The position numbers and the translations under genes are program-made. Positions 31,935-61,381 of a stretch of 64,000 nucleotides of DNA are shown here, piece by piece. The notes beneath the pieces are model-generated. The model made no database searches. It saw only the letters and a list, made by a program, of their open reading frames with translations, and was not told the DNA's origin. Each line of letters starts with the position of its first letter. The first letter of the stretch is position 1. The stretch lies in the IMG/VR virus record IMGVR_UViG_3300021437_000001, positions 32,001-96,000 of that record, one strand, 5' to 3'. The DNA comes from a virus.

Positions 31935-32101
31935 TGATTTGCGGTAGTGGTGGAACTGATAAGGACTTTGATTGTTACGATTACTATGTAAATTGTACAG
32001 TCAACCTTAAACCAGAACCAACGCTAAAAGAATTTGAAATTTGTAAACGAAATGAAAAATCAGGAATTAAACGGATAGAGAAACTAAAGGATACAAAATG
32101 A
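31901..32101 (+). CDS. Small Cys-containing exported hypothetical protein
   Basis: Hydrophobic N-terminus, several Cys; ATGA coupling to the next gene. Confidence 0.45.
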   Translation: MSTAAIATTILMICGSGGTDKDFDCYDYYVNCTVNLKPEPTLKEFEICKRNEKSGIKRIEKLKDTK

Positions 32102-32394
32102 GCGATCAACTAAACACAGGACTACTTCCTATCGGGGCAGTCAAAATTCCAGCGGTGGCTCCAGTTAAACCAGTTGCCGAAAAGCCTAAATTACGAGGGC
32201 TTACGGCTACACACGTCATCGTTGACGAAGTAGAAATCCTAACACTCGCACAAGTCGAACAAGCTCAGATCGAGAAAGTTCTAGCAATCCTTGGCAACAA
32301 CAAAGCCAAAGCTGCGAATGCTCTAGGAATTACTGTTAAAACACTTTATAACAAACTTCATGACTATGGTTTGTTTGAGAAGTACAAGGCTTAA
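32098..32394 (+). CDS. Stand-alone Fis/NtrC-type HTH_8 DNA-binding protein
   Basis: LTLAQVEQAQIEKVLAILGNNKAKAANALGITVKTLYNKLHDYG is the C-terminal HTH signature of sigma54 enhancer-binding proteins; no AAA+ or receiver domain. Confidence 0.85.
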   Translation: MSDQLNTGLLPIGAVKIPAVAPVKPVAEKPKLRGLTATHVIVDEVEILTLAQVEQAQIEKVLAILGNNKAKAANALGITVKTLYNKLHDYGLFEKYKA

Positions 32395-49205: not shown

Positions 49206-49427
49206 ATGAGAGTCTTATCTGAAAGAGAAAGACTATTGGTTGAGCTAGTTCATTTACTTTCTTACGGAGATAAGATTGATTTCGGACTGACTCTAGAAGA
49301 AGTTCAAACTTATCTAGAAAAGCCGATACCTCGTAAGAAAAACAGAAACGCCCTTCAATGTCTTGATGCCGATGGAGAACGTTTTCTGCAACAATTAAAA
49401 GATCATTTAGCTGAACGTAAACGCTGA
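49206..49427 (+). CDS. Hypothetical protein
   Basis: Follows the Rrf2 gene directly. Confidence 0.45.
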   Translation: MRVLSERERLLVELVHLLSYGDKIDFGLTLEEVQTYLEKPIPRKKNRNALQCLDADGERFLQQLKDHLAERKR

Positions 49428-50131
49428 CAAGCCGCTTGCAATAGCTCATGCGTATAGATTGCAGTGGCTTGAGAACTTCCGCTCATACTGGCTTTTCCTG
49501 AGCGTTTATCAAAAGAAATAATGTGCTCTCCCTCTCTCCAAATCATTCCTGGTAGGCCAAAATTTGAACTAGGACTTCTTTGTTTTTCATTGACGCCATT
49601 ACCTACCACTCGCATATTAGGTAGGTTTAAAGATGCAGGATAATAAGGCTCTTTGCTAATGTCCCATGCGGCCTTTTTAATTCTGCCGACTGTGTCTAAT
49701 TCATAATTACCCGAGGCCACGACAATAATACCAGAGTAGGCTTTTACAGCTTTAGTCTCTTCTTTAATTTCCTCTCTGCCACCACCAGAAAAATTAACTA
49801 TCTCTACGCCTAGGGTTTTTGCAAGTTCAAAACATTCAGCCGTTGAATGTGTTGCTGGATTGAAGAATTTGCATGAAATTATTTCGACTTCAGGGCACAC
49901 TTTATCCGAAAGTTTTGGACCGAACAATATCAGTCCAGTGATGTGCGTGCCGTGTCCGTGTCTGTCTATTAAGTCAGAATCCGAGTTATGTTTAGATAAG
50001 AACGGCTGCAATTCGTCAATCTGACTGATGCCTGTATCTATTACCATTACTCGTATCGAGTGTAGATTGGGTTCGCTTGCGCAAACCCCACCCATCAAAA
50101 AAGCTATTGAAAATAAAAATAGTTTTCTCAC
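49403..50131 (-). CDS. Secreted subtilisin-like (S8) protease
   Basis: Signal peptide; VIDTG, HGHGTHI, ASGN, SGSSQAT. Confidence 0.82.
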   Translation of the reverse strand: MRKLFLFSIAFLMGGVCASEPNLHSIRVMVIDTGISQIDELQPFLSKHNSDSDLIDRHGHGTHITGLILFGPKLSDKVCPEVEIISCKFFNPATHSTAECFELAKTLGVEIVNFSGGGREEIKEETKAVKAYSGIIVVASGNYELDTVGRIKKAAWDISKEPYYPASLNLPNMRVVGNGVNEKQRSPSSNFGLPGMIWREGEHIISFDKRSGKASMSGSSQATAIYTHELLQAACQRLRSAK

Positions 50132-50139
50132 AAAAAATC

Positions 50140-50577
50140 CTAATCTTTATCAGAATGCTCTTTGTCATCCGAAGATTTAAGCATCATACACAAAACACTT
50201 CGTTGAAAGTTAAGGTCAATTCCAGCCTCATAAGTTCCATTGTTATTAATATCTGTAAAGCTATCAATAACAACTCCACCATTAGGGCAAAGTGAACTTG
50301 GGGCAAGATATTGTTTGATCACTGCATTAGCACCATGCGGTCCAGTGTCGCCTTTAGGACCTACGCTGCCCGTTGCACCGTTATAACCGTTCATGCCGTT
50401 AAGACCACGAGGGCCGACTGGACCAGTAGCACCTGTCAATCCAGTATCTCCTTTGTCTCCCTTATCACCTTTAAGTCCTTGCTTCCCTTGTACGGTTTTG
50501 ACTTCGGAATAACCGTCATTACACCCTGAAAGTCCAATTGCAATTGCGATAAAAAACAACATCACTGCCAATTTCAT
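50140..50577 (-). CDS. Collagen-like repeat lipoprotein
   Basis: Lipobox LSGC, G-X-Y repeats, CPNGG...DINNNG motif; AAAGGAG RBS before ATG 50577. Confidence 0.7.
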   Translation of the reverse strand: MKLAVMLFFIAIAIGLSGCNDGYSEVKTVQGKQGLKGDKGDKGDTGLTGATGPVGPRGLNGMNGYNGATGSVGPKGDTGPHGANAVIKQYLAPSSLCPNGGVVIDSFTDINNNGTYEAGIDLNFQRSVLCMMLKSSDDKEHSDKD

Positions 50578-50590
50578 AAAATCTCCTTTG

Positions 50591-51511
50591 TTAGATAAGA
50601 TTTGCATCGGTTAAAACTTCACGAATAGTCTCTTCGTCCTCGTAAGAGTCTTCTGAGACTCGCATTACGAGATTGTCACCTTCGTATTGATCATGCAGCG
50701 CCGCAAGATCTAGAATATCTTGGCGAGTAACTTCATCAATTGAATACTCTTCCTCGTCTAATTCAGTTTCATAGTCCTCATCAGTAAATTGATTCTCACG
50801 ACCATATACTGTTTGATTCTCAATGGGCTTTTCACAAACTTGCAACACTTCAAACTTACAAATACGCATCTTTTCACCGTTGTAGTCGATAGGTACTGCA
50901 ACGACATCTTTAGGATTGATCTTTACTTCGACACGAGTCCCAGACCAATTAGAGGCATAGTTCCACGCTGCGGCATGCAATCCTGCCGAACACGTTCTAG
51001 TAGGGTCATCATCCACTTGCTCTCTAGGCATTTCACAAATAGCTCCTGGACTATTGTCAAACTTTCCGGTGTGCTTGTCTTTAAAGTCCTCAGTCACGCC
51101 ACGGTAGGCAATAAAACAACCGTCGTCAGTAAAAGGGTGTCCATTATGTTCAAGGAATTTAAACAATTGCTCTCGGGAACGGTAACTTGGATTCTGTTTG
51201 AGATTCTCCCAAAACTTAAGCAAGTAAGCAAATGGAATTCCTTCACGTTTAAACTCTAAAATGCGGGCATTTAGTTCAGTTGGTAAAGCCTCACCTGTCG
51301 AAGTGATAACTTGACCGTCTACAATTCGCAAACCGTCTTTGGCAAATTGTGCAGAGATGTCAACGAGTTCGGGAATTTCTGCGATTCGCCCTTCTTTAAT
51401 TGCCAAGATAACTTTACCAAAACGGTCGTCACCTCGAGCGATAGCCAGTGTTTTACCGTCAAAATTTACAGTCACGCTGTTTTGTGTGATGTGATAATTT
51501 ATTTTTCCCAT
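50591..51511 (-). CDS. rIIB: rIIB-like protein
   Basis: FWENL..NPS, LF.FL, DGCFIAY, MPRE.VDDDP...CS.GLH, VKINPKDVV.VP.DY...K.R.CK. Confidence 0.8.
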   Translation of the reverse strand: MGKINYHITQNSVTVNFDGKTLAIARGDDRFGKVILAIKEGRIAEIPELVDISAQFAKDGLRIVDGQVITSTGEALPTELNARILEFKREGIPFAYLLKFWENLKQNPSYRSREQLFKFLEHNGHPFTDDGCFIAYRGVTEDFKDKHTGKFDNSPGAICEMPREQVDDDPTRTCSAGLHAAAWNYASNWSGTRVEVKINPKDVVAVPIDYNGEKMRICKFEVLQVCEKPIENQTVYGRENQFTDEDYETELDEEEYSIDEVTRQDILDLAALHDQYEGDNLVMRVSEDSYEDEETIREVLTDANLI

Positions 51512-51534
51512 ACTTATCTCCTTTGTTACTTCTC

Positions 51535-51561
51535 TTATCGGTATAATTTTTTAAAACTTTA
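51535..51561 (-). promoter_or_regulatory. sigma28 (FliA)-type promoter
   Basis: TAAAGTTT-N11-ACCGATAA upstream of the rIIB RBS. Confidence 0.75.
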
Positions 51562-51873
51562 GTGATTTATTGATTGATCTAGCAATTTTTTTAAAGCCTC
51601 TCGACCTTCTGCCATTGCTGCCAAGCTGACCGTGTTGTCTGGCGTATGCTCTCTCAATAGATTAAACATACGATCATACTCAGTAAACACTTCGGCCTTG
51701 CTAGTCACTAGCTGACCGATACTGTAAAGCACGGACAATTGAGCATCGGTTAGCATTTTGAAACGCATGACTGTCATCCTATCGTCAATCTCTGAGTTAT
51801 CCACGATAAGCGCATACTGTATCGTATTGATAAATGCCCTAGCCATGACTGCGTTAATATTAAGTTTTTCCAT
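51559..51873 (-). CDS. Hypothetical protein between rIIA and rIIB
   Basis: AAGGAG RBS; about 104 aa. Confidence 0.55.
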   Translation of the reverse strand: MEKLNINAVMARAFINTIQYALIVDNSEIDDRMTVMRFKMLTDAQLSVLYSIGQLVTSKAEVFTEYDRMFNLLREHTPDNTVSLAAMAEGREALKKLLDQSINH

Positions 51874-51882
51874 ATTCACTCC

Positions 51883-53940
51883 TTATTTATTGTTTAGATA
51901 CCATGTCATTTCACGTCTACATTCTGCATCTGAGTAACGGTCCATGTGTTTCAACAATGGATATTTATCGTTAACTAACGCTTTCATTTCGGCGTCTTGT
52001 TCTAAAAACTTCACATACTCAGCATCATCTTTGAACCTTGTTACTAATACCGGAGGCACGTCCCTACCTTTATAAGCCTTGTTCATCATCTTGTATTGAT
52101 CGACCATTTTAGTCAACTTTTTATTTTTAATGCCCTCAAGTTGAGACAGTTTCTCAATGATGTGTAAGTTTAAAGCCTTAGCACGCATCATTCTGAGACG
52201 TATGTCTTCGGTGATAGTGATTTGATCTGCCCAATCTTTATACAGAGTGAAGCCTTTTTCACCTTGTACGATTTCAAATGTTTCTTTCGAGACCGCAATA
52301 AAGATCGGCTTTTTGTTTTTTGCGTCGTGTCGTGAACCACCAAATTCTCGAATCATTGTGTTCATTGATTCTTTTTTGTCTTGCCAGTCTGACAGTAAAC
52401 AGTAAATATATTCTCGACCGCTTGCAGACATTGCCGATGCAGTTTCGGCGTTCGTGTCTCGACCGTAACCATTCAAGTAATGGATATTTTGTTGACTCGC
52501 AAGCTTGGCCGCCTTGATTGCTTTTGGTGTTCGTGGAGGCAAAACAAAAGTAATGGCATGAAAGTCGTGAAACTTTCCTAAGATGTCTTGAAGGTCTTTC
52601 AAGGCCTTAGTTGGTGCCACGTCAAACTTTAATTGAGTGACTGTGCCTAGGCTATCCGTTGTCGTGGTAGGTCTTGCTCGAATGATATACATATCTTTAT
52701 TTGCACTAAGCACAGACTTGATTCGACGATTCATTGTCACTATCGACTCATCTTGATTGATCAAGTAGATGTTATGCAAATGATCAAATGGAATTCCCTT
52801 CACATTTGAGTCTTTGATCTTGTCACCACGCATTGTGTACTGGCGAAAAGTAACAGAGCCAAGTAAGTTTGTATATAAATATTGACCGTCAAAACGAAAA
52901 CCTTTGTATTCGTTATTTTGCATTACAAAATATTTGTACATACTGTGATAAACAGTGACGAATTCTTTGACAGTAGAGATTGCATTGATCTTTGCATTGA
53001 CATGGTTTTTCACGTCAGTTAGAAGTTTAGTGCCGATCTTTGCAAGACCTTTGCGAGTAAAATCAGAATCATCAAGTTTTTCACGACTTGCGGAAACTTG
53101 CACAAGTCCATTAGGAATTCTGATCACCATGTAACCTGCTAATTCCTTGCGTAGGTTTTCCATTGGCGCTACTTTCTCTAATAGGTCAGAAGGTAGGGCA
53201 TAAGGAATGCCGTCGATAACTAATAGACCTGAACGATTGTAGCCACTTGTAAGATAACTAGGTAAAAAATCACTGCTATTAGTAATTAACAAAGGGCCAA
53301 CTTCATAGCCTCGTAGCATAGAATCTAATGTCAAATTCTTTACCACTGGCATTTCTTCTTGTGTCCAAAAGTAACAGGCACGCTTGATCGAGTTACAAAA
53401 TTCTGTAACATCTCTAGGATTGACTGCAATCTGTATTTCGCAGCCATTAGGCTGATCAGTTTGAACTGTTTCGATTAAGTCCAATTGACCAACATTTGAT
53501 GAGCCGACGTGCGCATTGTAGGTGCGACGTGTGCCGTTGACTGTGGATTGAATGATAAAACCGTCTGCATAAGACCAAGCAGACTTAGCGCCAATGCCGA
53601 AGCCGCCTGTCTGTGTATTGTTTGTGCGCTTAGTAGAGGCACCATAAAGCACGAACACATTAGCCATTCTGTCTGGACTAATACCAGGACCAAAGTCTCG
53701 AACTTTAAATGTTGGCTCAAGTTGAGTCGGCGCAACAACTTCGATGCGTCGAGTCTGTCCGATTTCACGATGTGCGTCACGAGCATTGCTCATGTATTCT
53801 TGTACAAGTGTGCGAATTTTATGCTCATATAAACGATTGCGAAGAATCTCAATAACGACCGAAGGATCACCGATGCCAAATGATTGAGATTGAACGTCTT
53901 GATTTGATTCGTACTTGTTATTATGTCCAGCGATTCTCAT
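51883..53940 (-). CDS. rIIA: rIIA-like protein (N-terminal GHKL ATPase)
   Basis: LY..K...VQEYMSNARDAH, VRDFGPGIS, YGASTK......GGFGIGAKS; upstream of rIIB. Confidence 0.82.
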   Translation of the reverse strand: MRIAGHNNKYESNQDVQSQSFGIGDPSVVIEILRNRLYEHKIRTLVQEYMSNARDAHREIGQTRRIEVVAPTQLEPTFKVRDFGPGISPDRMANVFVLYGASTKRTNNTQTGGFGIGAKSAWSYADGFIIQSTVNGTRRTYNAHVGSSNVGQLDLIETVQTDQPNGCEIQIAVNPRDVTEFCNSIKRACYFWTQEEMPVVKNLTLDSMLRGYEVGPLLITNSSDFLPSYLTSGYNRSGLLVIDGIPYALPSDLLEKVAPMENLRKELAGYMVIRIPNGLVQVSASREKLDDSDFTRKGLAKIGTKLLTDVKNHVNAKINAISTVKEFVTVYHSMYKYFVMQNNEYKGFRFDGQYLYTNLLGSVTFRQYTMRGDKIKDSNVKGIPFDHLHNIYLINQDESIVTMNRRIKSVLSANKDMYIIRARPTTTTDSLGTVTQLKFDVAPTKALKDLQDILGKFHDFHAITFVLPPRTPKAIKAAKLASQQNIHYLNGYGRDTNAETASAMSASGREYIYCLLSDWQDKKESMNTMIREFGGSRHDAKNKKPIFIAVSKETFEIVQGEKGFTLYKDWADQITITEDIRLRMMRAKALNLHIIEKLSQLEGIKNKKLTKMVDQYKMMNKAYKGRDVPPVLVTRFKDDAEYVKFLEQDAEMKALVNDKYPLLKHMDRYSDAECRREMTWYLNNK

Positions 53941-53987
53941 TGTGTTACTCCTTTGCTTGGCTTCATTGCCTTGCTTTCATATAATAC

Positions 53988-54014
53988 TTATCGGCAGGTT
54001 TTCAAAAAACTTTA
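53988..54014 (-). promoter_or_regulatory. sigma28 (FliA)-type promoter
   Basis: Perfect TAAAGTTT-N11-GCCGATAA upstream of rIIA. Confidence 0.82.
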
Positions 54015-54017
54015 GAA

Positions 54018-54296
54018 CTATTTTGAATTTCTTTTTTTATACTCTGACATATAAGACTCTTCCTTAGCGATTCGAGCCGCTTGCTCTTCATCCGTCTCAT
54101 CTCGATAAGAATTCCAGCAAACATAAATATCTTGAGAAAAATTTGTATCTTCTGCCACAAAAACAAAAGTATTATGGCCCACAATTTCTTGTAACTGTTC
54201 AATATTAATTGCTTTATCTGGCAAAAGGGCTTTATGACTGGTCTGTACTTTTTGTTTTTCATAATTAATTTTAATAGCGTATGCGTATGCTGGCAT
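54018..54296 (-). CDS. Hypothetical protein
   Basis: AAGGAG RBS, own promoter. Confidence 0.6.
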   Translation of the reverse strand: MPAYAYAIKINYEKQKVQTSHKALLPDKAINIEQLQEIVGHNTFVFVAEDTNFSQDIYVCWNSYRDETDEEQAARIAKEESYMSEYKKRNSK

Positions 54297-54317
54297 TAAA
54301 ATCTCCTTGTTTAATAC

Positions 54318-54344
54318 TTATCGGCAGAATTTTAAAAAACTTTA
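54318..54344 (-). promoter_or_regulatory. sigma28 (FliA)-type promoter
   Basis: Perfect TAAAGTTT-N11-GCCGATAA. Confidence 0.82.
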
Positions 54345-55118
54345 GTCTTTTTTAATAAATTTTTGTATATCGTCCATTGATATAAGTCCCATAGGTGCCA
54401 AGCCATTATTTACACTCTTCAATTCAAAAAAGAAGTCTGGCTGTTCACCGAAGGCTTTAAATTCAAAACCGACTTGCGTCACATGGCCCACGGGTTTAGT
54501 CAAAAAATAAGCGGCATCATACCAAGACCGCAAGTCTGAACTGCCTCGGATATTGTCTGCGGCATTCTTAGACTTTGACGTCTTATTGTGATGCACAAGC
54601 ATGATCGCCGTGCCACTGTCCCGCTGTAAGTGTCTCAATTTGGTAAGTATCTTACTCATTTGAGACGTGCTACCTTCGGCAGTGTTCGGAATGAGACGCA
54701 CCAATGGGTCCATAATGATAAGCAATGGCCTCTCTTCAGTCACTTGCTTTCGCAATGCCTCAAAATGCTCATCGTTATCTAGTGCGAAGTTTTGCCCTGC
54801 CACGATTGACACGTTTTGTCGTAGGTCTCGCATTGAGGCTTGTTTTGCTCTGCAAATTTGCTCTAGACGTTCTTTGATAATTGCACCGCTATCCTCGCCT
54901 TGTATCATCATGACTCTGCCTTGTTTCAATACGTTATACATTCCAAAACATTTTTCACCTGTGGCAATACTGACCAACAATTCACCAGCAAGCCAAGACT
55001 TTCTCGTTTTGGGATCACCTGCCACAAGACACGTTGACGACTCTGGTAGTAGTCTCTCAATGAGCCATGATGTGTTGCCTTTATCATCTAGTTGATCAAT
55101 TGATTCAAACTTAAACAT
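54342..55118 (-). CDS. RecA-fold ATPase (AAA_25 / RepA helicase-like)
   Basis: WLIE.LLP, GDPKTRKS, QGED, IMDPL, LVHH, RGSS. Confidence 0.8.
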   Translation of the reverse strand: MFKFESIDQLDDKGNTSWLIERLLPESSTCLVAGDPKTRKSWLAGELLVSIATGEKCFGMYNVLKQGRVMMIQGEDSGAIIKERLEQICRAKQASMRDLRQNVSIVAGQNFALDNDEHFEALRKQVTEERPLLIIMDPLVRLIPNTAEGSTSQMSKILTKLRHLQRDSGTAIMLVHHNKTSKSKNAADNIRGSSDLRSWYDAAYFLTKPVGHVTQVGFEFKAFGEQPDFFFELKSVNNGLAPMGLISMDDIQKFIKKD

Positions 55119-55142
55119 TTGGCCCTTGCCTTTCTCCTATCC

Positions 55143-55170
55143 TTATCGGTAGGTATATTGAAAAACTTTA
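55143..55170 (-). promoter_or_regulatory. sigma28 (FliA)-type promoter
   Basis: TAAAGTTT-N12-ACCGATAA. Confidence 0.65.
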
Positions 55171-55207
55171 GCAAAATAGTCAACTATTACAATAAAAAAA
55201 TGTCTAC

Positions 55208-55429
55208 CTAGTTGAACTGAGACGTCTCAGGTAGATACATTTCATTGAGTTGATCAAGTAAAATGCTAGCGTACACCTCGGGTGTATTGATATGAGACGG
55301 TAGGTTCGTGATTAGTACCACGAACCCAGACGCCTCGAGTGTTTCAATCCAGGACATTGCCTCATCATCTAATTCATTGACAAGACGTTCTGCTGTAGCA
55401 TATTGAGATTTACCTTTGATTAGTATCAT
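55208..55429 (-). CDS. Hypothetical early-region protein
   Basis: GGAG RBS, ATG at about 55429 (MILIKG...). Confidence 0.5.
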   Translation of the reverse strand: MILIKGKSQYATAERLVNELDDEAMSWIETLEASGFVVLITNLPSHINTPEVYASILLDQLNEMYLPETSQFN

Positions 55430-55620
55430 TTTGACTCCAATTTTTGGTTTATTAATTCTTGCAATCCTCGTGCCGATACCATTAATGAATGAATTTCTAA
55501 CATTAAGACGCCACAAACTAACGGCATATCAGATTGATTCAAGTGGCCGTGTCTCTCCATTTGAGACACTAATGCCTTGAGTTTGTTTGCTCTGTCAATC
55601 ATAAACTGAACCTGTTCCAT
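55426..55620 (-). CDS. Hypothetical early-region protein
   Basis: AGGAG RBS, coupled ORF. Confidence 0.5.
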   Translation of the reverse strand: MEQVQFMIDRANKLKALVSQMERHGHLNQSDMPLVCGVLMLEIHSLMVSARGLQELINQKLESK

Positions 55621-55922
55621 TATGAGACTCCTAGGAATTTGTAGCGTTTTGTTACGACGTGTACTGTATTAAATTGAGACGTGTTGACTATTTCTCCAGT
55701 CTCGACGTTCAATAGTTCAAAACTTGAGTCTGAAATCAGTACCTCAGTGACGTCTTGACTTAGTCGGTAGCATCCTATCTTTTTGCCCTCTGAGTACTTG
55801 CGGACCCATGCGGTAGCATCGGCGAAAGTGTCAAGCGGTGTCGATAAGTCTCGACCGTTTTGCGTGACCATGTACCAAGACCGTTGACCAAGGGTATGTC
55901 TTAAAATGAAACACTTATCCAT
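55620..55922 (-). CDS. Hypothetical early-region protein
   Basis: Coupled ORF, 100 aa. Confidence 0.55.
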   Translation of the reverse strand: MDKCFILRHTLGQRSWYMVTQNGRDLSTPLDTFADATAWVRKYSEGKKIGCYRLSQDVTEVLISDSSFELLNVETGEIVNTSQFNTVHVVTKRYKFLGVS

Positions 55923-56145
55923 TTGACACCTTCTTGTTTCGTTTTGATACAGGTAGGTTTCGAGACTCTTTCAAGGCTTGCTGCGCATCTTGAATCATGC
56001 TTTCGACTGCGGTCAATGTAACTTTTGCGCCGTGAGCCTTAACAACGGCTAGCAAAACTTGTGCCAAATTCATTATTAACACCGTGTCCTCATTGAAGAC
56101 AGGATTAGGTTGTTTCAATTTGATAACTTTCGCATTCTGTTCCAT
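55915..56145 (-). CDS. Hypothetical early-region protein
   Basis: AAAGGAG RBS, first gene after a sigma28-type promoter. Confidence 0.6.
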   Translation of the reverse strand: MEQNAKVIKLKQPNPVFNEDTVLIMNLAQVLLAVVKAHGAKVTLTAVESMIQDAQQALKESRNLPVSKRNKKVSNG

Positions 56146-56177
56146 TTTGATACTCCTTTGTTTAGTGTTCGTTTTTC

Positions 56178-56205
56178 TTATCGGACGATTGAGTCAAAAA
56201 CTTAA
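56178..56205 (-). promoter_or_regulatory. sigma28 (FliA)-type promoter (variant)
   Basis: TTAAGTTT-N12-TCCGATAA. Confidence 0.55.
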
Positions 56206-56224
56206 GAACTATTTTTGTCTCAAA

Positions 56225-56827
56225 TTAGCACGCTCCCCAGCCAGCAAGCATCGTCTCAAATTGAGACTCTTTTTTGATTGCTTTTTCACGTTCAATTTTT
56301 ATTTTTGCGTCAAGTTTTGCCTTGACCGTTGCAATTTTTGTCTTGAGGCTTGCAATCCTTTTTTGCAAGCCTTGCGGTCTCAAGTCACCTTGACAGACTG
56401 GACATTTTGCGGACTGATAGACTTTCAAGGCAAGCAATCGAGACTTGCAAGCGCCGCAAGTGTGAAAGGCTTTCGACCGTGTCAACGGCTTGCTTTCAAG
56501 GTCACGCAATTGCGTCGATAGCGCCTTGACTCGGTCTTGCAATTTTGACAGTGACTTGCTTTCGATAGTCACCTCACAAAAATAAACAGCCACAACGGTG
56601 TCCCATTTTGAGGCATTTTTCAAACAAAAATCATGTGCCTCATTATAAGACGTAAAGACTTGATCAAGTCTATAGTCTACTTTTGAGACAGTTTGAAAGT
56701 CGCCGCTATAACCGTCTTGATGTCCATTTTCGAGACGGTCTTGATCTTGTTTTGACTTAAATAGATCATAAATCTCATTTCGAGACAACTTTCCTTTTCT
56801 AGTTGTCTCAATATTACACGCTCCCAT
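56225..56827 (-). CDS. Hypothetical protein with zinc finger flanked by coiled coils
   Basis: CGAC...CPVC; AAAAGGAG RBS. Confidence 0.65.
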   Translation of the reverse strand: MGACNIETTRKGKLSRNEIYDLFKSKQDQDRLENGHQDGYSGDFQTVSKVDYRLDQVFTSYNEAHDFCLKNASKWDTVVAVYFCEVTIESKSLSKLQDRVKALSTQLRDLESKPLTRSKAFHTCGACKSRLLALKVYQSAKCPVCQGDLRPQGLQKRIASLKTKIATVKAKLDAKIKIEREKAIKKESQFETMLAGWGAC

Positions 56828-56869
56828 TTGACACGCTCCTTTTTGATACGTTGTTTAGTAGACGTCACG

Positions 56870-56901
56870 AAAAAGGCCCCATCTCAAAATGAGACAGGGC
56901 C
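56870..56901 (-). terminator. Intrinsic terminator built on the palindrome motif
   Basis: Minus strand GGCCCTGTCTCA-TTT-TGAGATGGGGCC-TTTTT (12-bp stem with G-U pairs). Confidence 0.75.
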
Positions 56902-56909
56902 ACAAAGGA

Positions 56910-57392
56910 TTACACCGCCTCATCCTGAGACGTTTTTCGGACATTTGGTTGTATTGAATTGGGAATCTGTATTCTTTTGAGACCAGTTATTTTGCGTGCC
57001 AAAATGAGACCATCATTCCAGTCGTCTTGACGTCCGTCGCTTGCGACGTCGATAAGATCACCTAGACGATGTTTCAAAATGATAAGGCAAGCGGTCACGA
57101 CTGTATCATACGGATACATATTCGTTTTGCAAAAATCTGACTCATTTTGAGACAAGTGCTCTCGCATAACGAAGTCCTCACATGAGCCGACTCGTTCTGA
57201 GCCATTCACTTTGAGACCACCATAGAGTTTTGGCTCACAATGAGCCGAAAATCCAGCGAGACCGCCAAACGTCTCAGAATAATACCGTATCGTTTTGGCA
57301 CATTCATAAATCGCTTTTTGATACGCTGCCTCAGATTGAGTCGCTTTGCCTTTCGGCGCTTTTTTGAAAGTCCAGTAATGCGTATATCCCAT
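56910..57392 (-). CDS. Conserved-type phage hypothetical protein
   Basis: MGYTHYW N-terminus and FCKT..PYD..VTACL...SDG pattern; AAAGGAG RBS. Confidence 0.7.
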   Translation of the reverse strand: MGYTHYWTFKKAPKGKATQSEAAYQKAIYECAKTIRYYSETFGGLAGFSAHCEPKLYGGLKVNGSERVGSCEDFVMREHLSQNESDFCKTNMYPYDTVVTACLIILKHRLGDLIDVASDGRQDDWNDGLILARKITGLKRIQIPNSIQPNVRKTSQDEAV

Positions 57393-57459
57393 TTTGATAC
57401 TCCTTTGTTTTGAGACCGTCGTCTTGACAAGTCTCGGTTTTGTTTTGCTGTCTTATCTC

Positions 57460-57486
57460 TTATCGGTCACTTTTTTAAAAACTTGA
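57460..57486 (-). promoter_or_regulatory. sigma28 (FliA)-type promoter
   Basis: TCAAGTTT-N11-ACCGATAA. Confidence 0.7.
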
Positions 57487-57512
57487 GGCTTTCAGTCAAC
57501 TTTTTTAAAAAA

Positions 57513-57800
57513 TCACGCCGCTTTAAATTGATTCAATATGTCCCAATCTGAGACAGTTTCATTGGTATCGTCCCAAACTAAGACAGTACGTCCAGCGTGA
57601 CCGTGCAATAGGATAGCGTCAACCCATGTCTCAAATTGAGTCACTGAATTGATCTTGCGAGTCGAGCCGTCCGCAAGTTTTGCGTCAACGGTCCAGCGGA
57701 CTTGCGTCAAGCCTTGCGCATTGACTTGACCGCTTGCAACGTGTCCAGTGCCCGACGTGCCTGTCAAGTCTTGCAATCGTATCAACTTAAATGTTCTCAT
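57513..57800 (-). CDS. Conserved-type phage hypothetical protein
   Basis: MRTFKLIR..D.TGTSGTG.VA.G...VRW...HGH.G.T..VW; AAAGGAG RBS before ATG 57800. Confidence 0.7.
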   Translation of the reverse strand: MRTFKLIRLQDLTGTSGTGHVASGQVNAQGLTQVRWTVDAKLADGSTRKINSVTQFETWVDAILLHGHAGRTVLVWDDTNETVSDWDILNQFKAA

Positions 57801-57886
57801 TTTGAGACTCCTTTGTTTACGTCTTGCGTCAATATTGACAGACGACGTCAAAACAGTCAAGTAAAAAATACAGTCTCATTTTGAGA

Positions 57887-58084
57887 CTAAAGACCGTACC
57901 ATGTCAAACTGAGACGGTCTTGATTTTCATTCAATCGGTCAAGTTCAAGGTCTGTCAAGTCTTGCAACGTGTCAAGATAGCTTGCGGACTGGACAAAAAA
58001 GCCGTCGCCGTCCAGTGACTCGACGCAAGCCTCAATTTTTCGACCGTCAACGGTCAAAACAAGATCTTTTTTGCGTTGTCTCAT
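57887..58084 (-). CDS. Hypothetical early-region protein
   Basis: 65 aa acidic ORF after the Gp88-like gene. Confidence 0.5.
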   Translation of the reverse strand: MRQRKKDLVLTVDGRKIEACVESLDGDGFFVQSASYLDTLQDLTDLELDRLNENQDRLSLTWYGL

Positions 58085-58085
58085 A

Positions 58086-58754
58086 TTAAGCCACCTTATC
58101 CCACGTCGTGTTTTGATAGTTTTTTGCGCCGTGATAGACTAGACCGATTTTGTTTTGCTTGCCTTGCGCCGCTATCAAGTCGTCTTGCGTGCTGTCAACG
58201 TAGCCAGCCGCTTGCAATGCCTCTAGACTTTCAAACACTTTCGAGTGAAAGTCTGTCTCAATTTGAATCAAGTCGTCTTGTTTGCCACCGAAGGAAAAAA
58301 TGACTCGGAATGAGACAGGCAAGTTTTTATAGGACTGTATCATTTTGACCATTTTTGAATAGGCATAAAATGAGACACGTTTTTCTGTCTCAAAATGGCG
58401 CATGATTGCAATCCATTTTTCAAAATATTCAAGGCTGTAAAAATCACCCGCATCATGAATTCTCACTTTGAGATTTTCAACGCTTCTCTTTTTGAGCCAT
58501 GTCTCAATTTCGGAAATCATTGCAGGGACAAAATTCTCACTTTGAGACAGTTCAAGTTTTGCATTATGAGCCGATACGGACGACTTGAAACGATACGTTC
58601 CAGATCGAGCGTAGCATCCTGAGACGCATGCGCTTGCCATTGGGCACGTCTTGAAACCTGTCTCAGATTGAAACGCTGGCAAGGTCCAGTTAACGACCGT
58701 TGTCCCACTTTGAGACGACTTTTTCATTTTTGCATTTTGAGTTAACAATATCAT
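58086..58754 (-). CDS. Gp88-like protein (Cys-cluster, radical-SAM-like fold)
   Basis: N.KM.K, TCP.AS.C...CYA..G, VRIHDAGDFYS..Y, FYAYSK. Confidence 0.75.
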   Translation of the reverse strand: MILLTQNAKMKKSSQSGTTVVNWTLPAFQSETGFKTCPMASACVSGCYARSGTYRFKSSVSAHNAKLELSQSENFVPAMISEIETWLKKRSVENLKVRIHDAGDFYSLEYFEKWIAIMRHFETEKRVSFYAYSKMVKMIQSYKNLPVSFRVIFSFGGKQDDLIQIETDFHSKVFESLEALQAAGYVDSTQDDLIAAQGKQNKIGLVYHGAKNYQNTTWDKVA

Positions 58755-58801
58755 TTTGATACTCCTTTGTTTTGCAAGCCGTCTTGACTTGCTTGACTAT
58801 C

Positions 58802-58828
58802 TTATCGGTCACTTTTTTAAAAACTTGA
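58802..58828 (-). promoter_or_regulatory. sigma28 (FliA)-type promoter
   Basis: TCAAGTTT-N11-ACCGATAA, identical to 57460-57486. Confidence 0.7.
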
Positions 58829-58848
58829 GGCCTTTTTTGCAAAAAAAT

Positions 58849-58883
58849 AAAAAAAGAGGCCGTATCAGATTGATACAGCCCCT
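58849..58883 (-). terminator. Intrinsic terminator built on the palindrome motif
   Basis: Minus strand AGGGGCTGTATCA-ATC-TGATACGGCCTCT followed by a T run. Confidence 0.75.
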
Positions 58884-58895
58884 ATTCGTCTCAAA

Positions 58896-59684
58896 TTAAG
58901 CCGCTTTGATCAATTGAGTCGCAGCGTCCCATATTGAGGCGTTCAAGTCGATAGCTTTCACGCTTTCAGTCTTGATTTTGCGTGCTGTCATGTTGCGGAC
59001 GTTTTGCACGCCGTTCTCATCTTGAGACACTGTTTGGTATCTCAATCCGAAACGAATAATGTTCTCTTGTATCACATTGAGACAACTAAACAAGTCATTT
59101 TTTGCGTCGTCTTGACGTCGGACTTTCAGCAAGTCCGCAATCTCAATCTTGACAACGTTGTCAATGCCTTGCAATCGGATTGACGCAACGTCTTGCGCAA
59201 GCTTGATCAACTCACTCGGTGACACGTCACGGGCTTGCATCATTTTGACCGTATCAACTAAAGACTCACGTTGAGCAACTAGTCTCGGAATGAGACTGTC
59301 AAGTTCTTGATACGGATTGCCTAAGTGTTTCACTTTGATTGTCTCAAAATGAGTCCCAACGTTCAATTGGTTGGCGCAAGTCCCACGGAAAAGACCTAAA
59401 ACGCCTTGAAGTGAGCCGTATAAATGTGGGACTTTAAAAATGATGTCAAAACCGAGGCCGTCAATTGCAAAACCGTCTCTTGATCGGTATCTTGCAACGG
59501 TCGTTTGAAAGTCTTGACGGTCTGGACTTTTTGCCTTGCCTGTCTTAAGATGAACTAGGTCAAAACCGTGACTGTCTAGGACTTCAGCTATCAATGCGGG
59601 CTTGATAGCTTGAAAGCGGTCTGATTTTGAAACGTGTTTTTGATCTTGCACGAAGCTAGTTGAAACTGTGTTATTTTGAGACAT
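58896..59684 (-). CDS. DUF932/DUF945-family protein
   Basis: SDRF..I.......L...GF, GLFR..C.N, LL..RR..D...DL....NVIQEN.I, LN..IW; AAAGGAAG RBS before ATG 59684. Confidence 0.75.
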   Translation of the reverse strand: MSQNNTVSTSFVQDQKHVSKSDRFQAIKPALIAEVLDSHGFDLVHLKTGKAKSPDRQDFQTTVARYRSRDGFAIDGLGFDIIFKVPHLYGSLQGVLGLFRGTCANQLNVGTHFETIKVKHLGNPYQELDSLIPRLVAQRESLVDTVKMMQARDVSPSELIKLAQDVASIRLQGIDNVVKIEIADLLKVRRQDDAKNDLFSCLNVIQENIIRFGLRYQTVSQDENGVQNVRNMTARKIKTESVKAIDLNASIWDAATQLIKAA

Positions 59685-59736
59685 TTTGCACTTCCTTTGT
59701 TTTAACGGTCGCATCATTGCGCCGTCGATAGTTAAC

Positions 59737-59763
59737 TTATCGGTGACTTTTTAAAAAACTTGA
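59737..59763 (-). promoter_or_regulatory. sigma28 (FliA)-type promoter
   Basis: TCAAGTTT-N11-ACCGATAA. Confidence 0.7.
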
Positions 59764-59920
59764 GGCCTTTTTTAAAAAAAACTTATCTTTTTTGCATCGA
59801 CTCGACAACTGTCTTAATTTGAGCCGTTGTCGGTATTGACACCATCAAGCACGCCGCCCCATAAAGATACAGTCCTAAAATGAGACTAAAAGCTATTAAC
59901 TGTTTCATATTGAGATTCTC

Positions 59921-60070
59921 CTATTGTTTAGTATTTAAGTCAAGTATATTCTCATCTTGAGACGAAAAAGACTCGACCGCTAAGTATCCCAATATGAGAC
60001 ACCAAGCTGTTGTGTATCCATTTGAGCCGAAAGTCAAGTAAACAAAAATAAGCAATGAAAACTGTTTCAT
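59921..60070 (-). CDS. Small hydrophobic peptide
   Basis: MKQFSLLIFVYL..., AAAAGGGG RBS-like before ATG 60070. Confidence 0.4.
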   Translation of the reverse strand: MKQFSLLIFVYLTFGSNGYTTAWCLILGYLAVESFSSQDENILDLNTKQ

Positions 60071-60086
60071 ATTGATACGCCCCTTT

Positions 60087-60356
60087 TTATTCAAAATCAG
60101 ATAAGTCAAAACCCATTGAGTCAACGGCTTGCAAGACAGGCGTCTCAAAATGAGACTCATATAGACTTATCAAGTCTTGACCTAGGTCTTGCACGGCTTG
60201 ACTTTTTGACGCTTGCATTGCACGCAAGGCTTTCGACTTATAACTCATGTCACCACCCATGCAACGGTCAAGCTGTCTCAAAGTGAGATGCTCAACGATT
60301 TCTGTCCAGATTTGAGACATTTGAGCTTGAACTTGACGATTTTTGTCTTGTCTCAT
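60087..60356 (-). CDS. Hypothetical early-region protein
   Basis: 89 aa, AAAGG upstream. Confidence 0.55.
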   Translation of the reverse strand: MRQDKNRQVQAQMSQIWTEIVEHLTLRQLDRCMGGDMSYKSKALRAMQASKSQAVQDLGQDLISLYESHFETPVLQAVDSMGFDLSDFE

Positions 60357-60357
60357 A

Positions 60358-60519
60358 TTAAGCCGCCTTTCTCAAAACGATACATACGGTTGGATTGTTC
60401 TCAAATTGAGCCTGTTGCTTTTTGATACGTTTTGGCTTGCTTGCGCCCTCGGCGTGTCCAGCCTTAAGTTTTGTCAAAATCACGTTTTTTTGTCCAGCTA
60501 TCAGTTTAGGTTGTCTCAT
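60358..60519 (-). CDS. Small basic protein (not in ORF track), first gene after the sigma54-type promoter
   Basis: ATG 60519 to TAA 60358, 53 aa MRQPKLIAGQKNVILTKLKAGH...LRKAA; GAAAGG RBS. Confidence 0.5.
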   Translation of the reverse strand: MRQPKLIAGQKNVILTKLKAGHAEGASKPKRIKKQQAQFENNPTVCIVLRKAA

Positions 60520-60556
60520 TTTGAAGCCTTTCGTTTCGGGTTGATACTTAACTATC

Positions 60557-60574
60557 TTGCACGCCGCATGCCAA
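60557..60574 (-). promoter_or_regulatory. sigma54 (RpoN)-type -24/-12 promoter
   Basis: Minus strand TTGGCATGCGGCGTGCAA: GG-N10-GC spacing; predicted start about 60547, roughly 28 nt before ATG 60519. Confidence 0.6.
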
Positions 60575-60832
60575 CGTAAACACCTGAATTCACTTAAGTC
60601 TCAATCTGAGAAAGCGTCGATCTTTTAGTCAATCCAGCCCCTAAACCCTAAACCCCAGCAAAACCCACTACTTAAGGCCTGTCAATCTTATATACAAGAG
60701 TGACAGTTTTTGTCAAGTATCTCATATTGGTACACTGCCACGTTTTCACCTATATATAGAAAAACAACATAATCCCATAGTGAGACATATACACTTATTA
60801 AGGTCTATCTAGTCAAGGTCAAGTCTAGACCT

Positions 60833-60986
60833 AGGTCAACGGATAGCGTGACGATAGGTCAAGGCCTTGAGATAGTATTGCGGCAAGGTCAACGGATAGC
60901 AAGACAGAAAGGATTGAAATCTCAATATGAGACATGAATGGGTGTGAGTGTGTTGGAATGAGACAATCAGCGGATAGCAAGACAGA
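60833..60986 (+). repeat. Short direct repeats in the long non-coding region
   Basis: AGGTCAACGGATAGC at 60833 and 60886; CGGATAGCAAGACAGA at 60893 and 60971. Confidence 0.7.
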
Positions 60987-61381
60987 CGACCGTTGTCAAG
61001 CGTCAAAAAACTATCTAGTCGAGCGCAAAGCGTTTCAATTTGAGAATCTATGCGAAAATAAAAAAGAAAAAAGAAAGCGTCTCAAAATGAGACTCTGACG
61101 ATAATGTATATTATCATCACGTTTCAAAATGAGAATCCTCAATGAATACGGGGGGATAGCTGCGTTGCAGTGCCGAGGCCCTATGCTTGTGCCTAGTAGT
61201 CTCTCACAATTTTTTTAGCATTATATTAGTTGACGCACTGCGTTAAGCCTACAGTTTGCCAGACAGTTGATTTCCAGAAACGAAAATCCTGATTGAAAAT
61301 TTTATTTTTTGAGTGTGTAATAAGTTCTTGATTAGATTGCTAGTTTTTGTATTTTTTACACTTATAAATGACGCATTGCAT

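Follow-up and report, generated by a model that had tools for sequence, protein, structure and literature searches.

A dense array of a 15-bp palindrome over a gene cassette of an uncultured freshwater phage, a putative target of a Fis-type protein

Organization of the locus

The window analysed here is a stretch of 64,000 nucleotides (positions 32,001 to 96,000 of the IMG/VR virus record IMGVR_UViG_3300021437_000001) from the 117,954-bp genome of an uncultured freshwater phage, referred to as G000 when compared with its relatives. In this genome, 60-90 copies of the palindrome GTCTCA-N3-TGAGAC are spread over about 6.5 kb of mostly protein-coding DNA. The features of this palindrome carpet and its surroundings are as follows (window coordinates):

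54825..61135, no strand: palindrome carpet, 60 copies with up to two mismatches, 90 with up to three
50591..51511, minus: rIIB-like protein, 306 aa; no copies within
51883..53940, minus: rIIA homologue, 685 aa, directly downstream of the carpet; 3 copies within (ORF map)
54342..55118, minus: gene of an AAA_25 protein (RecA/DnaB-like ATPase), in the 5' part of which the carpet fades out
56225..56827, minus: coiled-coil protein of 200 aa with Cys pairs; 6 copies within; found in 4 of the 5 carpets compared
56875..56901, minus: terminator-like hairpin, 12 pairs and a T run; palindrome copy at its tip
56910..57392, minus: 160-aa protein of unknown family, starting MGYTHYWT; best conserved cassette gene, 6 copies within
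57513..57860, minus: 115-aa ORF (phrog_7499), used for codon alignment
58086..58754, minus: GP88-family protein, 222 aa; core cassette gene, 7 copies within
58855..58883, minus: terminator-like hairpin, 13 pairs and a T run, built round the variant GTATCA-ATC-TGATAC
58896..59717, minus: DUF932 protein, 273 aa; core cassette gene, 7 copies within
60520..61381, minus: upstream carpet edge, mostly non-coding; copies at 60598, 60719, 60772, 61032, 61079 and 61121
from 60573, minus: sigma54-like match TGGCATGCGGCGTGCA (2 mismatches), within the upstream carpet edge

The label "early region" would follow from gene content only, namely the small ORFs and rIIA/rIIB.

Copy number and extent of the palindrome

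Four perfect copies are present in the window, compared with none in 100 dinucleotide-preserving shuffles, and all lie where the initial annotation had placed them:

56253..56267, no strand: perfect copy, GTCTCAAATTGAGAC; lies in the zinc-ribbon ORF of 200 aa
57873..57887, no strand: perfect copy, located at a gene edge and forming the tip of a terminator-like hairpin
60142..60156, no strand: perfect copy within a small ORF
61079..61093, no strand: perfect copy, non-coding, at the carpet head

When up to three mismatches are allowed, the window contains 124 copies, against 25.2 +/- 5.3 expected (39 in the top shuffle). Over the whole genome, 60 of the 75 copies with up to two mismatches and 90 of the 146 with up to three fall between 54,825 and 61,135, and no other 2-kb bin holds more than four of the latter, in agreement with the earlier impression of a local array with scattered sites elsewhere. 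Moreover, 179 control palindromes of equal base composition gave a mean of 4.3 and a maximum of 23 copies, as against 75 for the carpet motif. The hand count of 60-70 copies made in the initial annotation also compares well with the 58 (up to two mismatches) and 87 (up to three) computed between 55,217 and 61,135, and the spacer is, as described there, 3 nt long and A/T-rich. The upper limit, placed near 61.14 kb, is indeed sharp at 61,135; the lower one had been set too high, near 55.2 kb, since it is fuzzier and copies reach about 54,825 within the AAA_25 gene. Neighbouring copies with up to three mismatches are separated by a median of about 52 bp. The same stretch was found letter-identical in contigs from two freshwater DNA runs belonging to separate studies (the record may itself derive from one of the runs), so that the carpet is not an assembly artefact.

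Distribution among phages

As many as 14 phage records show the same carpet over the same cassette (DUF932, GP88 and the 160-aa protein), immediately upstream of rIIA/rIIB, and some of them have little else in common with this phage. The arrays range from 60 to 115 copies each, with up to 9 copies per kb. Among the five carpets compared, GP88 and the 160-aa gene were always present, as was DUF932 in the four with that region. Between phages these genes reach 62-71% identity, compared with an average of about 39% for the other ORFs in common. The carpet thus tracks one cassette across unrelated backgrounds rather than a genome end, which leaves the suggested roles in protecting first-injected DNA or as a centromere-like zone unsupported.

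The cassette also exists on its own. At locus L157, DUF932, GP88 (59% identical) and the 160-aa gene (55%) are found with no copy in 20.4 kb, which indicates that the cassette is able to function in the absence of a carpet, and another 70 viral-scan loci with a homologue of the 160-aa gene hold at most two copies each.

Selection on the DNA within genes

Three quarters of the 60 copies with up to two mismatches (45) lie wholly within 15 minus-strand ORFs; eight are intergenic and seven lie at gene edges, including start codons. In the 15 ORFs, for one of which the coordinates were not a multiple of three (a small error), 46 coding copies were counted, far above the 5.9 +/- 2.0 left after synonymous-codon shuffling (maximum 12 in 200 shuffles) and the 0.3 +/- 0.5 left after codon permutation. 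The gap between both controls supports the view, already put forward in the initial annotation, that copies in unrelated ORFs have bent the protein sequences towards the motif.

Codon usage points in the same direction. In the array-less relative L031, orthologues have identical residues but spell them with codons that do not fit the motif (gta tct where this phage has GTC TCA, for example), and in the codon alignment of the 115-aa ORF the synonymous codons that fit the motif occur in this phage and in L030, but not in L031. The copies arose via substitutions which kept the reading frames open. Furthermore, synonymous third positions are conserved between G000 and the carpet-bearing relative G002 at 49 of 62 sites within copies and 448 of 688 outside (p = 0.025), so that existing copies show purifying selection. 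These data indicate that selection acts on the DNA itself, independently of the proteins.

Nature of the site

In 505 pooled copies, the 15-bp motif begins with G in 88% and ends with C (position 15) in 81%, and its centre is A/T. The 60 copies comprise 360 pairs, 90 of which are non-consensus; merely two of these 90 are compensated Watson-Crick changes and 40 are not even wobble pairs, with one and two compensated pairs in two relatives. Since broken pairs are almost never compensated, a double-stranded protein site is indicated and not a hairpin, and the copies behave as two independently conserved half-sites, in line with the preference of the initial annotation for a dimeric operator.

The view that the copies are hairpins in mRNA or single-stranded DNA (6-bp stem, 3-nt loop), with a role in RNA processing or stability, in translation control or as targets of a single-strand-specific protein, is very improbable on these figures, because most copies could not fold. 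It draws on the location of every gene of the block on one strand, on the three copies at the tips of terminator-like hairpins and the several over start codons, and on an excess of G-U-compatible over A-C mismatches in the mRNA strand (30 against 18); the excess is, however, accounted for by the avoidance of TGA, frame-0 copies reading TGG GAC, and an Rfam search gave no match. Even harder to sustain is a non-functional by-product of restriction-modification pressure or of a local mutational process. The half-sites do contain GTCTC/GAGAC, a type IIS restriction recognition word, but this word is enriched in the carpet, not avoided, and occurs outside it at about the frequency predicted from composition; the full 15-bp arrangement, with its 3-nt A/T spacer and flank preferences, is conserved in up to 14 records, and the frame-preserving substitutions described above also argue against such an origin.

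Candidate binding protein

The initial annotation compared the motif with sites of Fis/NtrC-type HTH dimers. This comparison has gained weight: the motif shows the G-N13-C layout and the A/T centre of sites bound by the Fis family, and the phage encodes a Fis-type protein of its own:

32098..32394, plus: P0001, a stand-alone HTH protein of Fis type (98 aa; Pfam HTH_8) and candidate carpet reader

The gene lies about 22 kb from the carpet, amid nucleotide-metabolism genes, with no palindrome copy near it. P0001 matches Pfam HTH_8 with E = 4.9e-11 and aligns to Fis over residues 6-92, its score against the NCBIfam Fis equivalog (30.9 bits) being below the 99-bit cut-off. The motif differs from the Fis consensus at +/-3, with the pyrimidine-purine (C-A) step one base further in.

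Each of the three complete genomes with a carpet (G000, G005 and G017) has a small stand-alone HTH_8 gene, although G005 and G017 may be close relatives and the three may represent two lineages. No such gene was found in five array-less relatives found via the 160-aa gene, three of which are at least 90% complete, and in array-less G003 the syntenic spot has no HTH_8 gene. None was found either in the carpet-bearing fragments G001, G002, G004 and G016, which at 39-67% completeness says little either way. The HTH proteins of the three carpet genomes are only about 37% identical, yet have in common the recognition helix [IV][ST]VKT[LIV]YNKL, which parallels the unchanged motif.

Five further IMG/VR records carry the HTH family with the identical helix and no dense carpet, their copies against control being 16 and 8 (G011), 1 and 1 (G012), 17 and 2 (G013), 6 and 4 (G014) and 12 and 6 (G015). 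It follows that the HTH protein alone does not suffice for a carpet; its link with the carpet is suggestive only, and their co-occurrence could be mere shared ancestry. In G013, which has the HTH gene and no cassette, the motif ranks first of 180 palindromes of the same composition (17 copies against 2.8 +/- 2.5). The scattered copies of G011 and G013 are mostly within ORFs and show no operator-like placement.

Promoters and control of the cassette

Two promoter types are found in the carpets. In this phage they are of the sigma28 type, several being followed by the leader AAACAAAGGAGTATCAAAATG:

51535..59761, minus: eight co-oriented sigma28-type promoters AAGTTT-N11-14-CCGATA, with 5' ends at 59761, 58826, 57484, 56203, 55168, 54342, 54012 and 51559

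The carpets of G002 and G004 have the same type, and these three carpets hold 8.0-8.7 copies per kb. Sigma54-type promoters (TGGCAC-N5-TTGCA, up to one mismatch) are found in the carpets of G001 (18 on the coding strand in 9 kb), G005 (12 in 18 kb) and others, including L146-L149 and L171, and several directly precede ribosome-binding sites. The equal density of the carpet with either promoter type fits a promoter-independent mechanism.

A host sigma54 activator (NtrC-, FleQ- or FlrC-type, with an HTH_8 DNA-binding domain) is the main competitor of P0001 as reader, and in our judgement a rather unlikely one. The palindromes would then be a blanket enhancer for the sigma54 promoters of the cassette or a sponge titrating the host regulator, and the small phage HTH protein a competitor that later displaces the activator. 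The crowding of sigma54-type promoters in the relatives' carpets is in keeping with this, and so is the lack of an AAA+ activator domain (PF00158) and of a sigma70-type factor in all five carpet-bearing records searched (two of them complete), as a result of which such promoters would need host factors. The sigma54 enhancer proposed in the initial annotation is favoured by the relatives' promoters; it does not agree with the sigma28-type promoters of this phage, which need no activator and lie under an equally dense carpet with only three coding-strand sigma54 matches, all weak, nor with the placement of the copies, which follow no favoured spacing relative to sigma54 promoters (apart from a dip over their core) and are missing from the 130 bp upstream of several clean intergenic sigma54 promoters in G005. 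The purifying selection on existing copies also speaks against it, and no host regulator with a matching site could be named. VpsR was considered and does not fit the site. A reader encoded within the cassette itself (the DUF932, GP88, 160-aa or zinc-ribbon protein), making the whole a self-contained unit moving between phages, would explain the constant presence of these genes under carpets and their high identity; it is nevertheless improbable in view of the copy-free cassette of L157, the 70 loci with at most two copies, the motif enrichment of G013 without the cassette, and Pfam, PHROGs, NCBIfam and PDB sequence searches in which the cassette proteins showed no recognisable DNA-binding domain.

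We tentatively favour, with a probability of roughly 0.45, a cassette-wide coat of P0001 that controls transcription. The carpet would consist of double-stranded DNA sites for one dimeric helix-turn-helix protein, which selection has written into the codons and start regions of one cassette immediately upstream of rIIA/rIIB as well as into its terminators and spacers. P0001, the likeliest reader, would bind and bend, like Fis, 15-bp G-N13-C sites with an A/T-rich centre, its predicted target being GTCTCAAAATGAGAC. With sites every 50-110 bp or so, bound dimers could turn the cassette into one continuous nucleoprotein domain setting the transcription of the whole, whichever the promoter type. 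As to direction, we lean to a timed shut-off once P0001 is made from the replication-gene cluster.

Comparison with known systems

A G-N13-C, AT-centred 15-bp signature is reported, in the available text of PMC7166090, for Fis and the Fis-like NinH of lambda. According to the same text, both are small homodimeric HTH proteins, NinH being phage-encoded, that bend DNA on binding to a 15-bp pseudo-palindrome with G and C ends, the A/T-rich centre being a Fis feature; no array of dozens of intragenic sites is described in it for either. P0001 resembles Fis in its 98 aa and in aligning to it over nearly the whole length. The carpet motif is far more specific than the sites of Fis and NinH (each of its 12 outer positions carries more than 1 bit), with the shifted pyrimidine-purine step. 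Host CtrA sites in flagellotropic and pilitropic phages of Alphaproteobacteria, which tie phage genes to the motility and cell-cycle circuit of the host, are likewise many copies of a regulator site, but the regulator and motif are other ones, and the sites are promoter-associated, with no dense carpet within coding sequence in the portion of the source available (PMC9437464).

The upstream activating sequences of sigma54 promoters (NtrC-family HTH_8 sites) share with the carpet the HTH_8-type palindrome, the small stand-alone HTH_8 protein in the phage and the sigma54-type promoters inside the relatives' carpets. They differ from its 60-115 copies per array, mostly coding and with no positional relation to promoters, which in this genome are of the sigma28 type.

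Stoperators are asymmetric, oriented sites of about 13-14 bp that number a few dozen in each genome; most of them lie in short gaps between genes, and their reader is a monomeric immunity repressor. In Cluster A mycobacteriophages, many such repressor sites across transcribed DNA influence elongation as well as acting at promoters, as the available part of PMC9283540 describes, and a promoter-independent control through many sites is what they would have in common with the carpet. The carpet, an unusually dense means of marking a gene block, differs from them in having a palindromic site at up to 9 copies per kb, restricted to a single cassette and placed for the most part within codons.

The palindrome carpet and its limits

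At the level of sequence, the carpet has been shown to be a selected, conserved and cassette-specific array of double-stranded DNA sites of the dimer type. It is made up of many degenerate copies of the 15-bp palindrome GTCTCA-N3-TGAGAC, laid over a cassette of genes (DUF932, GP88-family, a 160-aa protein and their neighbours). The features of the window referred to here are the following:

54,825-61,135: the carpet, with all genes of the block on the minus strand
50591-53940, minus strand: two genes immediately downstream of the carpet, for homologues of rIIA (685 aa; phrog_612, E = 1e-74) and rIIB (rIIB-like, 306 aa)
60640-60680, minus strand: G-rich sequence in the carpet's non-coding head, with TTTAGGG-like repeats (gggttttgctggggtttagggtttagggg) and no Rfam match
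32,098-32,394, plus strand: P0001, a 98-aa stand-alone Fis-type HTH protein

The four perfect copies were recovered exactly where the initial annotation had placed them, and none appeared in 100 shuffles. Allowing up to three mismatches, 124 copies were counted in the window, where 25.2 +/- 5.3 would be expected; with up to two mismatches there are 75 in the whole record (117,954 bp, of which the window covers bases 32,001-96,000; IMG/VR class: terminal repeats, complete), and 60 of these fall within the carpet, that is, within 5% of the genome. For 179 palindromes of the same composition the corresponding score has a mean of 4.3 and a maximum of 23. The upper edge, at 61,135, is sharp; the lower one lies about 400 bp further down than noted initially, inside an AAA_25 ATPase gene. 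The carpet stretch was found letter-identical in contigs from two freshwater DNA runs of different studies, one of which may be the source. Four contigs of 151-165 nt from an RNA library also match portions of the block and of rIIA exactly; they show no ends and may derive from DNA carry-over, and are not evidence of transcription, just as the lack of such contigs elsewhere carries no meaning.

The consensus of 505 pooled copies, drawn from 12 arrays, is y-GTCTCA-WWW-TGAGAC-r, with all 12 outer positions conserved at 77-97% (88% for the G at position 1, 81% for the C at position 15). The spacer positions 7-9 are A or T in 78-87% of copies and are flanked by A6 and T10. No robust helical phasing emerges between neighbours: the period that fits best is about 10.5 bp with up to three mismatches and about 12.5 bp with up to two (R <=0.16).

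Double-stranded sites embedded in coding sequence

The carpet copies could in principle act as RNA hairpins, and three of them do lie at the tips of terminator-like hairpins, which shows that it is accommodated within the sequence already in place. Nevertheless, the stems are not maintained as pairs: 90 of the 360 stem pairs in the 60 copies are off consensus, 40 of them not even forming wobble pairs, and a compensatory change was found in only 2 of the 90, as compared with 1 and 2 in two relatives. The uncompensated mismatches described initially are therefore real, no Rfam match was obtained for the carpet, and the RNA reading is the less likely one: judged from these patterns, the copies are double-stranded, dimer-type DNA sites.

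Most of the 60 copies (45) lie wholly within ORFs, with 8 intergenic and 7 at gene edges. Coding sequences retain 46 copies, as compared with 5.9 +/- 2.0 after synonymous-codon shuffling and 0.3 after codon permutation (one ORF coordinate was mis-set in this test, a small error), so that the motif is carried by codon choice and amino-acid sequence alike; the gap between the two controls supports the bias on protein sequence suspected from the first inspection. Among the in-ORF copies, the frame that places TGA in frame is the least used (9, with 22 and 14 in the other two), and the TGA-containing half-site on the coding strand is accordingly less well kept. Codon alignments illustrate the same constraint: V-S is written GTC TCA and T-Q-F-E-T is written ACT CAA TTT GAG AC in this phage and in the related locus L030, while L031, a relative with no array, encodes identical or similar residues there with other codons.

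Moreover, synonymous third positions are better kept between this phage and its carpet-bearing relative G002 inside copies (49 of 62) than elsewhere (448 of 688; p = 0.025). Copy positions turn over between phages, as in GP88 when this phage is compared with locus L001, and it seems to be density, rather than each single site, that selection keeps. A by-product of restriction or of mutation has also to be considered as the origin of the carpet, and is less likely.

Occurrence in other phages

Querying the GenBank phage collection with the DNA of the carpet block gave no hits, and there is no close cultured phage; the terminase has cultured relatives only about 24% identical, which leaves no host or literature handle. 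Protein-seeded scans, in turn, detected the same motif in six IMG/VR virus records (G001, G002, G004, G005, G016 and G017) and in seven metagenome loci (L143, L144, L146, L147, L148, L149 and L171), at densities of 2.5-9.5 copies per kb. As the two sets may overlap in part, this gives up to 14 records, the present one included. GP88 and the 160-aa gene lie under the carpet in all five arrays compared, DUF932 in the four having that region, and a 200-aa zinc-ribbon protein in four of five. The rIIA and rIIB homologues downstream are almost free of copies; both adjoin the carpet likewise in G002, G005, L147 and L148, and G001 has a rIIB-like gene.

Few ORFs are common to this phage and either G005 (about 39% identity) or G001 (23-65%), but for GP88 and the 160-aa gene the identity of this phage with these two is 62-71%. 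As the cassette genes are so similar in otherwise divergent phages, the cassette and its carpet seem to move between backgrounds, and the comparison suggests horizontal exchange of the two together.

The genes may also be found without the carpet. It is absent from 28 distant GP88 loci and, when the 160-aa gene served as the query, from 70 of the 73 viral loci and 73 of the 80 metagenome loci recovered. The array-less relative L031/G003 lacks it despite orthologues 66-72% identical, and L157, which carries DUF932, GP88 (59%) and the 160-aa gene, has 0 copies in 20.4 kb. The question raised initially, whether homologues of the carpet ORFs lack the motif, has a divided answer: they do at the 28 GP88 loci, in L031/G003 and in L157, and do not in the carpet-bearing relatives. 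Among 16 array-less cassette loci scanned de novo for palindromes, none showed an alternative carpet.

Promoters under the carpet

Two classes of promoter have been found in the carpet regions:

Window 51535-59761, minus strand: eight co-oriented, near-identical sigma28 (FliA)-type promoter matches, pattern AAGTTT-N11-14-CCGATA
L001, 400-8400: stretch rich in sigma54-type promoters (TGGCAC-N5-TTGCA, 0-1 mismatch)
L001, 4192-4295: four tandem copies of the sigma54-type promoter
G005, 51-64 kb: stretch rich in sigma54-type promoters (same pattern and mismatch limit)

The sigma28 consensus is TAAAGTTT-N11-GCCGATAA. Several of the eight promoters are followed by an identical leader, and those with 5' ends at 57484 and 58826 have the identical core AAGTTTTTAAAAAAGTGACCGATA. 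Breaks in the Logan assemblies, at 57460-57487 and 58800-58831, adjoin these same two promoters. Promoters of this type are also present in G002 (nine) and locus L039 (four), and none was found in G001 or locus L040. The phage has no sigma factor of its own (PF04542 is absent), for which reason its sigma28-type promoters seem to depend on a flagellar sigma factor of the host. Together with the freshwater origin, these promoters are so far the only pointers to that host.

By contrast, sigma54-type promoters (0-1 mismatch) drive the cassette in G001, G005, L146-L149 and L171, whose carpets are densely packed with them, several immediately in front of ribosome-binding sites; the present carpet has 3 weak sigma54 matches on the coding strand against its 8 sigma28-type promoters. 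Sigma28 and sigma54 are the two flagellar sigma factors of polar-flagellate bacteria. Neither an AAA+ activator domain (PF00158) nor a sigma70-type factor is present in any of five carpet-bearing records, two of them complete.

The palindromes had been proposed as an enhancer array for a sigma54 activator, a role marked by a preferred distance upstream of the promoter. For 30 sigma54 promoters no such distance emerges: palindrome offsets are flat from -300 to +150, with a dip over the promoter core. Since the same carpet lies over both promoter classes and the offsets are flat, the carpet is, on sequence evidence, independent of promoter class, and its layout is unlike that of discrete enhancers or operators.

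A candidate reader

P0001 matches Pfam HTH_8 (E = 4.9e-11; 42.6 bits, cut-off 22) and can be aligned to E. coli Fis across residues 6-92, whereas against the Fis equivalog model NF001659 (NCBIfam) it scores 30.9 bits for a cut-off of 99; it is thus a Fis-type HTH protein and not Fis itself. Its homodimer prediction (0.34, for a mark of 0.42) counts neither way. HTH_8 genes are present in all three complete carpet-bearing genomes, at about 22 kb from the carpet here, 10 kb in G005 and 12 kb in G017; the G005 and G017 proteins have 71 and 68 residues. The recognition helices are nearly identical in the three (ITVKTLYNKL, VSVKTIYNKL and VSVKTVYNKL) at an overall protein identity of about 37%, and the helix is common to 22 further small proteins.

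Five array-less relatives do not have the gene, and three of these are 90% complete or more; it is missing from the syntenic spot of G003 as well. Four carpet-bearing fragments, only 39-67% complete, are also without it. Five further IMG/VR records with this HTH family have no dense carpet. In one of these, G013, the carpet motif is the top-ranked palindrome (17 copies against 2.8 +/- 2.5), and in another, G011, it is marginal (16 copies, rank about 5 of 180); most copies of either record fall within ORFs, and their placement does not resemble that of operators. From this co-occurrence, a Fis-type HTH protein looks necessary but not sufficient for a carpet, in small numbers which shared ancestry may inflate.

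Comparison with known systems

ParB/parS centromeres comprise about 1-10 palindromes of 16 bp beside a partition operon. The carpet differs from them in its 60-90 copies and in that Pfam and PHROGs identify no partition gene among the block ORFs, so that the centromere-like role suggested at first finds no support. Sigma54 enhancers involve the same protein domain, but their sites are few, non-coding and positioned, unlike those of the carpet. Mycobacteriophage stoperators are asymmetric, held in one orientation relative to transcription, sparse and spread genome-wide, whereas the carpet site is palindromic and 60 of its 75 copies are gathered in 5% of the genome. The resemblance to stoperators lies in the multiplicity of sites; stoperators are reported to block elongation (PMC9283540).

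The closest likeness is to the sites of Fis and of lambda NinH. Fis sites are described as a G/C dyad enclosing an AT-rich core of 13 bp, in a 15-bp pseudo-palindrome with G at -7, C at +7 and pyrimidine-purine steps at -4/-3 and +3/+4, and NinH selects 5'-G-N13-C-3' (PMC7166090). The carpet site shares with them, so described, the G-N13-C layout and with Fis sites the A/T-rich central core; it departs from the latter in having T-C at -4/-3, its C-A and T-G steps being placed one base further in, at -3/-2 and +2/+3. The site form is the same, but Fis and NinH sites are not known to form arrays. VpsR, considered as a binder of TCTCA-type palindromes, proved wrong on checking the literature. No account of a palindrome carpet in phage coding sequence was found in the literature covered, most subscription journals lying outside it; the novelty lies in how dense the carpet is, in its being embedded in codons and in its independence of promoter class.

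Possible mechanism and alternatives

A Fis-type dimer, most likely the phage's own, would occupy the carpet sites and turn the cassette into a bent, coated domain, whose transcription could then be controlled as a unit. As for the direction of control, the arrangement leans towards shut-off: the candidate reader lacks an activation domain, its gene is grouped with those for replication and nucleotide metabolism on the opposite strand, individual copies are found in transcribed DNA and across start regions, and the carpet persists across the change of sigma class.

The main rival holds that the sites belong to a sigma54 activator of the host, as an enhancer or a sponge, with the phage HTH protein as a competitor. 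It fits the relatives with sigma54-type promoters, but leaves the sigma28-type lineage unexplained. A reader encoded in the cassette itself is less likely; PDB sequence searches with the three core cassette proteins returned nothing below E = 0.6. In the Protein Atlas the 160-aa protein falls only in unnamed clusters.

A bolder version of the preferred reading, occupation by the phage's own protein, would make the carpet an address label: a Fis-like protein would coat 6-12 kb of mostly coding DNA through 60-115 sites and make a mobile cassette into a viral chromatin domain, switched or insulated as one unit under sigma28 or sigma54 alike, such promoter-agnostic, domain-level control being undescribed for bacteriophages. 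This bolder version is tentative, at a probability of roughly one in four. If one small protein does read the sites, this would be the densest natural operator array found for a bacterial virus, and a regulatory code set atop the protein code, with a site every 50-110 bp or so bending the codons, and even the residues, of a dozen genes. What stands out is that one cassette is tracked beside rIIA/rIIB, in otherwise unlike phages, through a swap of promoter class and together with a minimal Fis-type protein, so that the 98-residue protein and the 15-bp site form a directly testable pair. This pair offers a handle on domain-level control of phage genes, on the cost of overlapping codes and on the use of host flagellar sigma factors by phages.

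Other repeats and neighbouring genes

A second carpet in L031 was rejected, its AT-rich words belonging to a terminal tandem repeat; positions 1-500 of this locus are a terminal stretch of 17% GC with TAATTA-containing repeats, at a period of about 29 bp and then of 13-17 bp. The palindromes of loci L079, L104 and L106 are not carpets, and neither are the dispersed TTGTAA-N3-TTACAA sites of G005 and G011. This second 15-bp palindrome, with up to one mismatch, occurs 22 times in G005, 12 in G011 and 6 in the present phage (whole records), and might serve as a promoter or operator element or else reflect AT-richness. Just upstream of the G005 carpet, at L040 3889-4094, a repeat that includes the palindrome GTGACCATGCTGTCAC occurs seven times, mostly at a spacing of 24 bp.

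The ends of the present record (1-122 and 117832-117954) overlap by about 122 bp inside repetitive fibre-like coding sequence, and the terminal repeat may thus be an assembly circularisation. Finally, two more genes lie beyond rIIB in the same orientation:

49403-50607, minus strand: genes for a 155-aa protein with collagen repeats and a 242-aa protein with a subtilase-family S8 domain

This pair looks like a fibre with a protease of the intramolecular chaperone type, oddly placed beside early-type genes.
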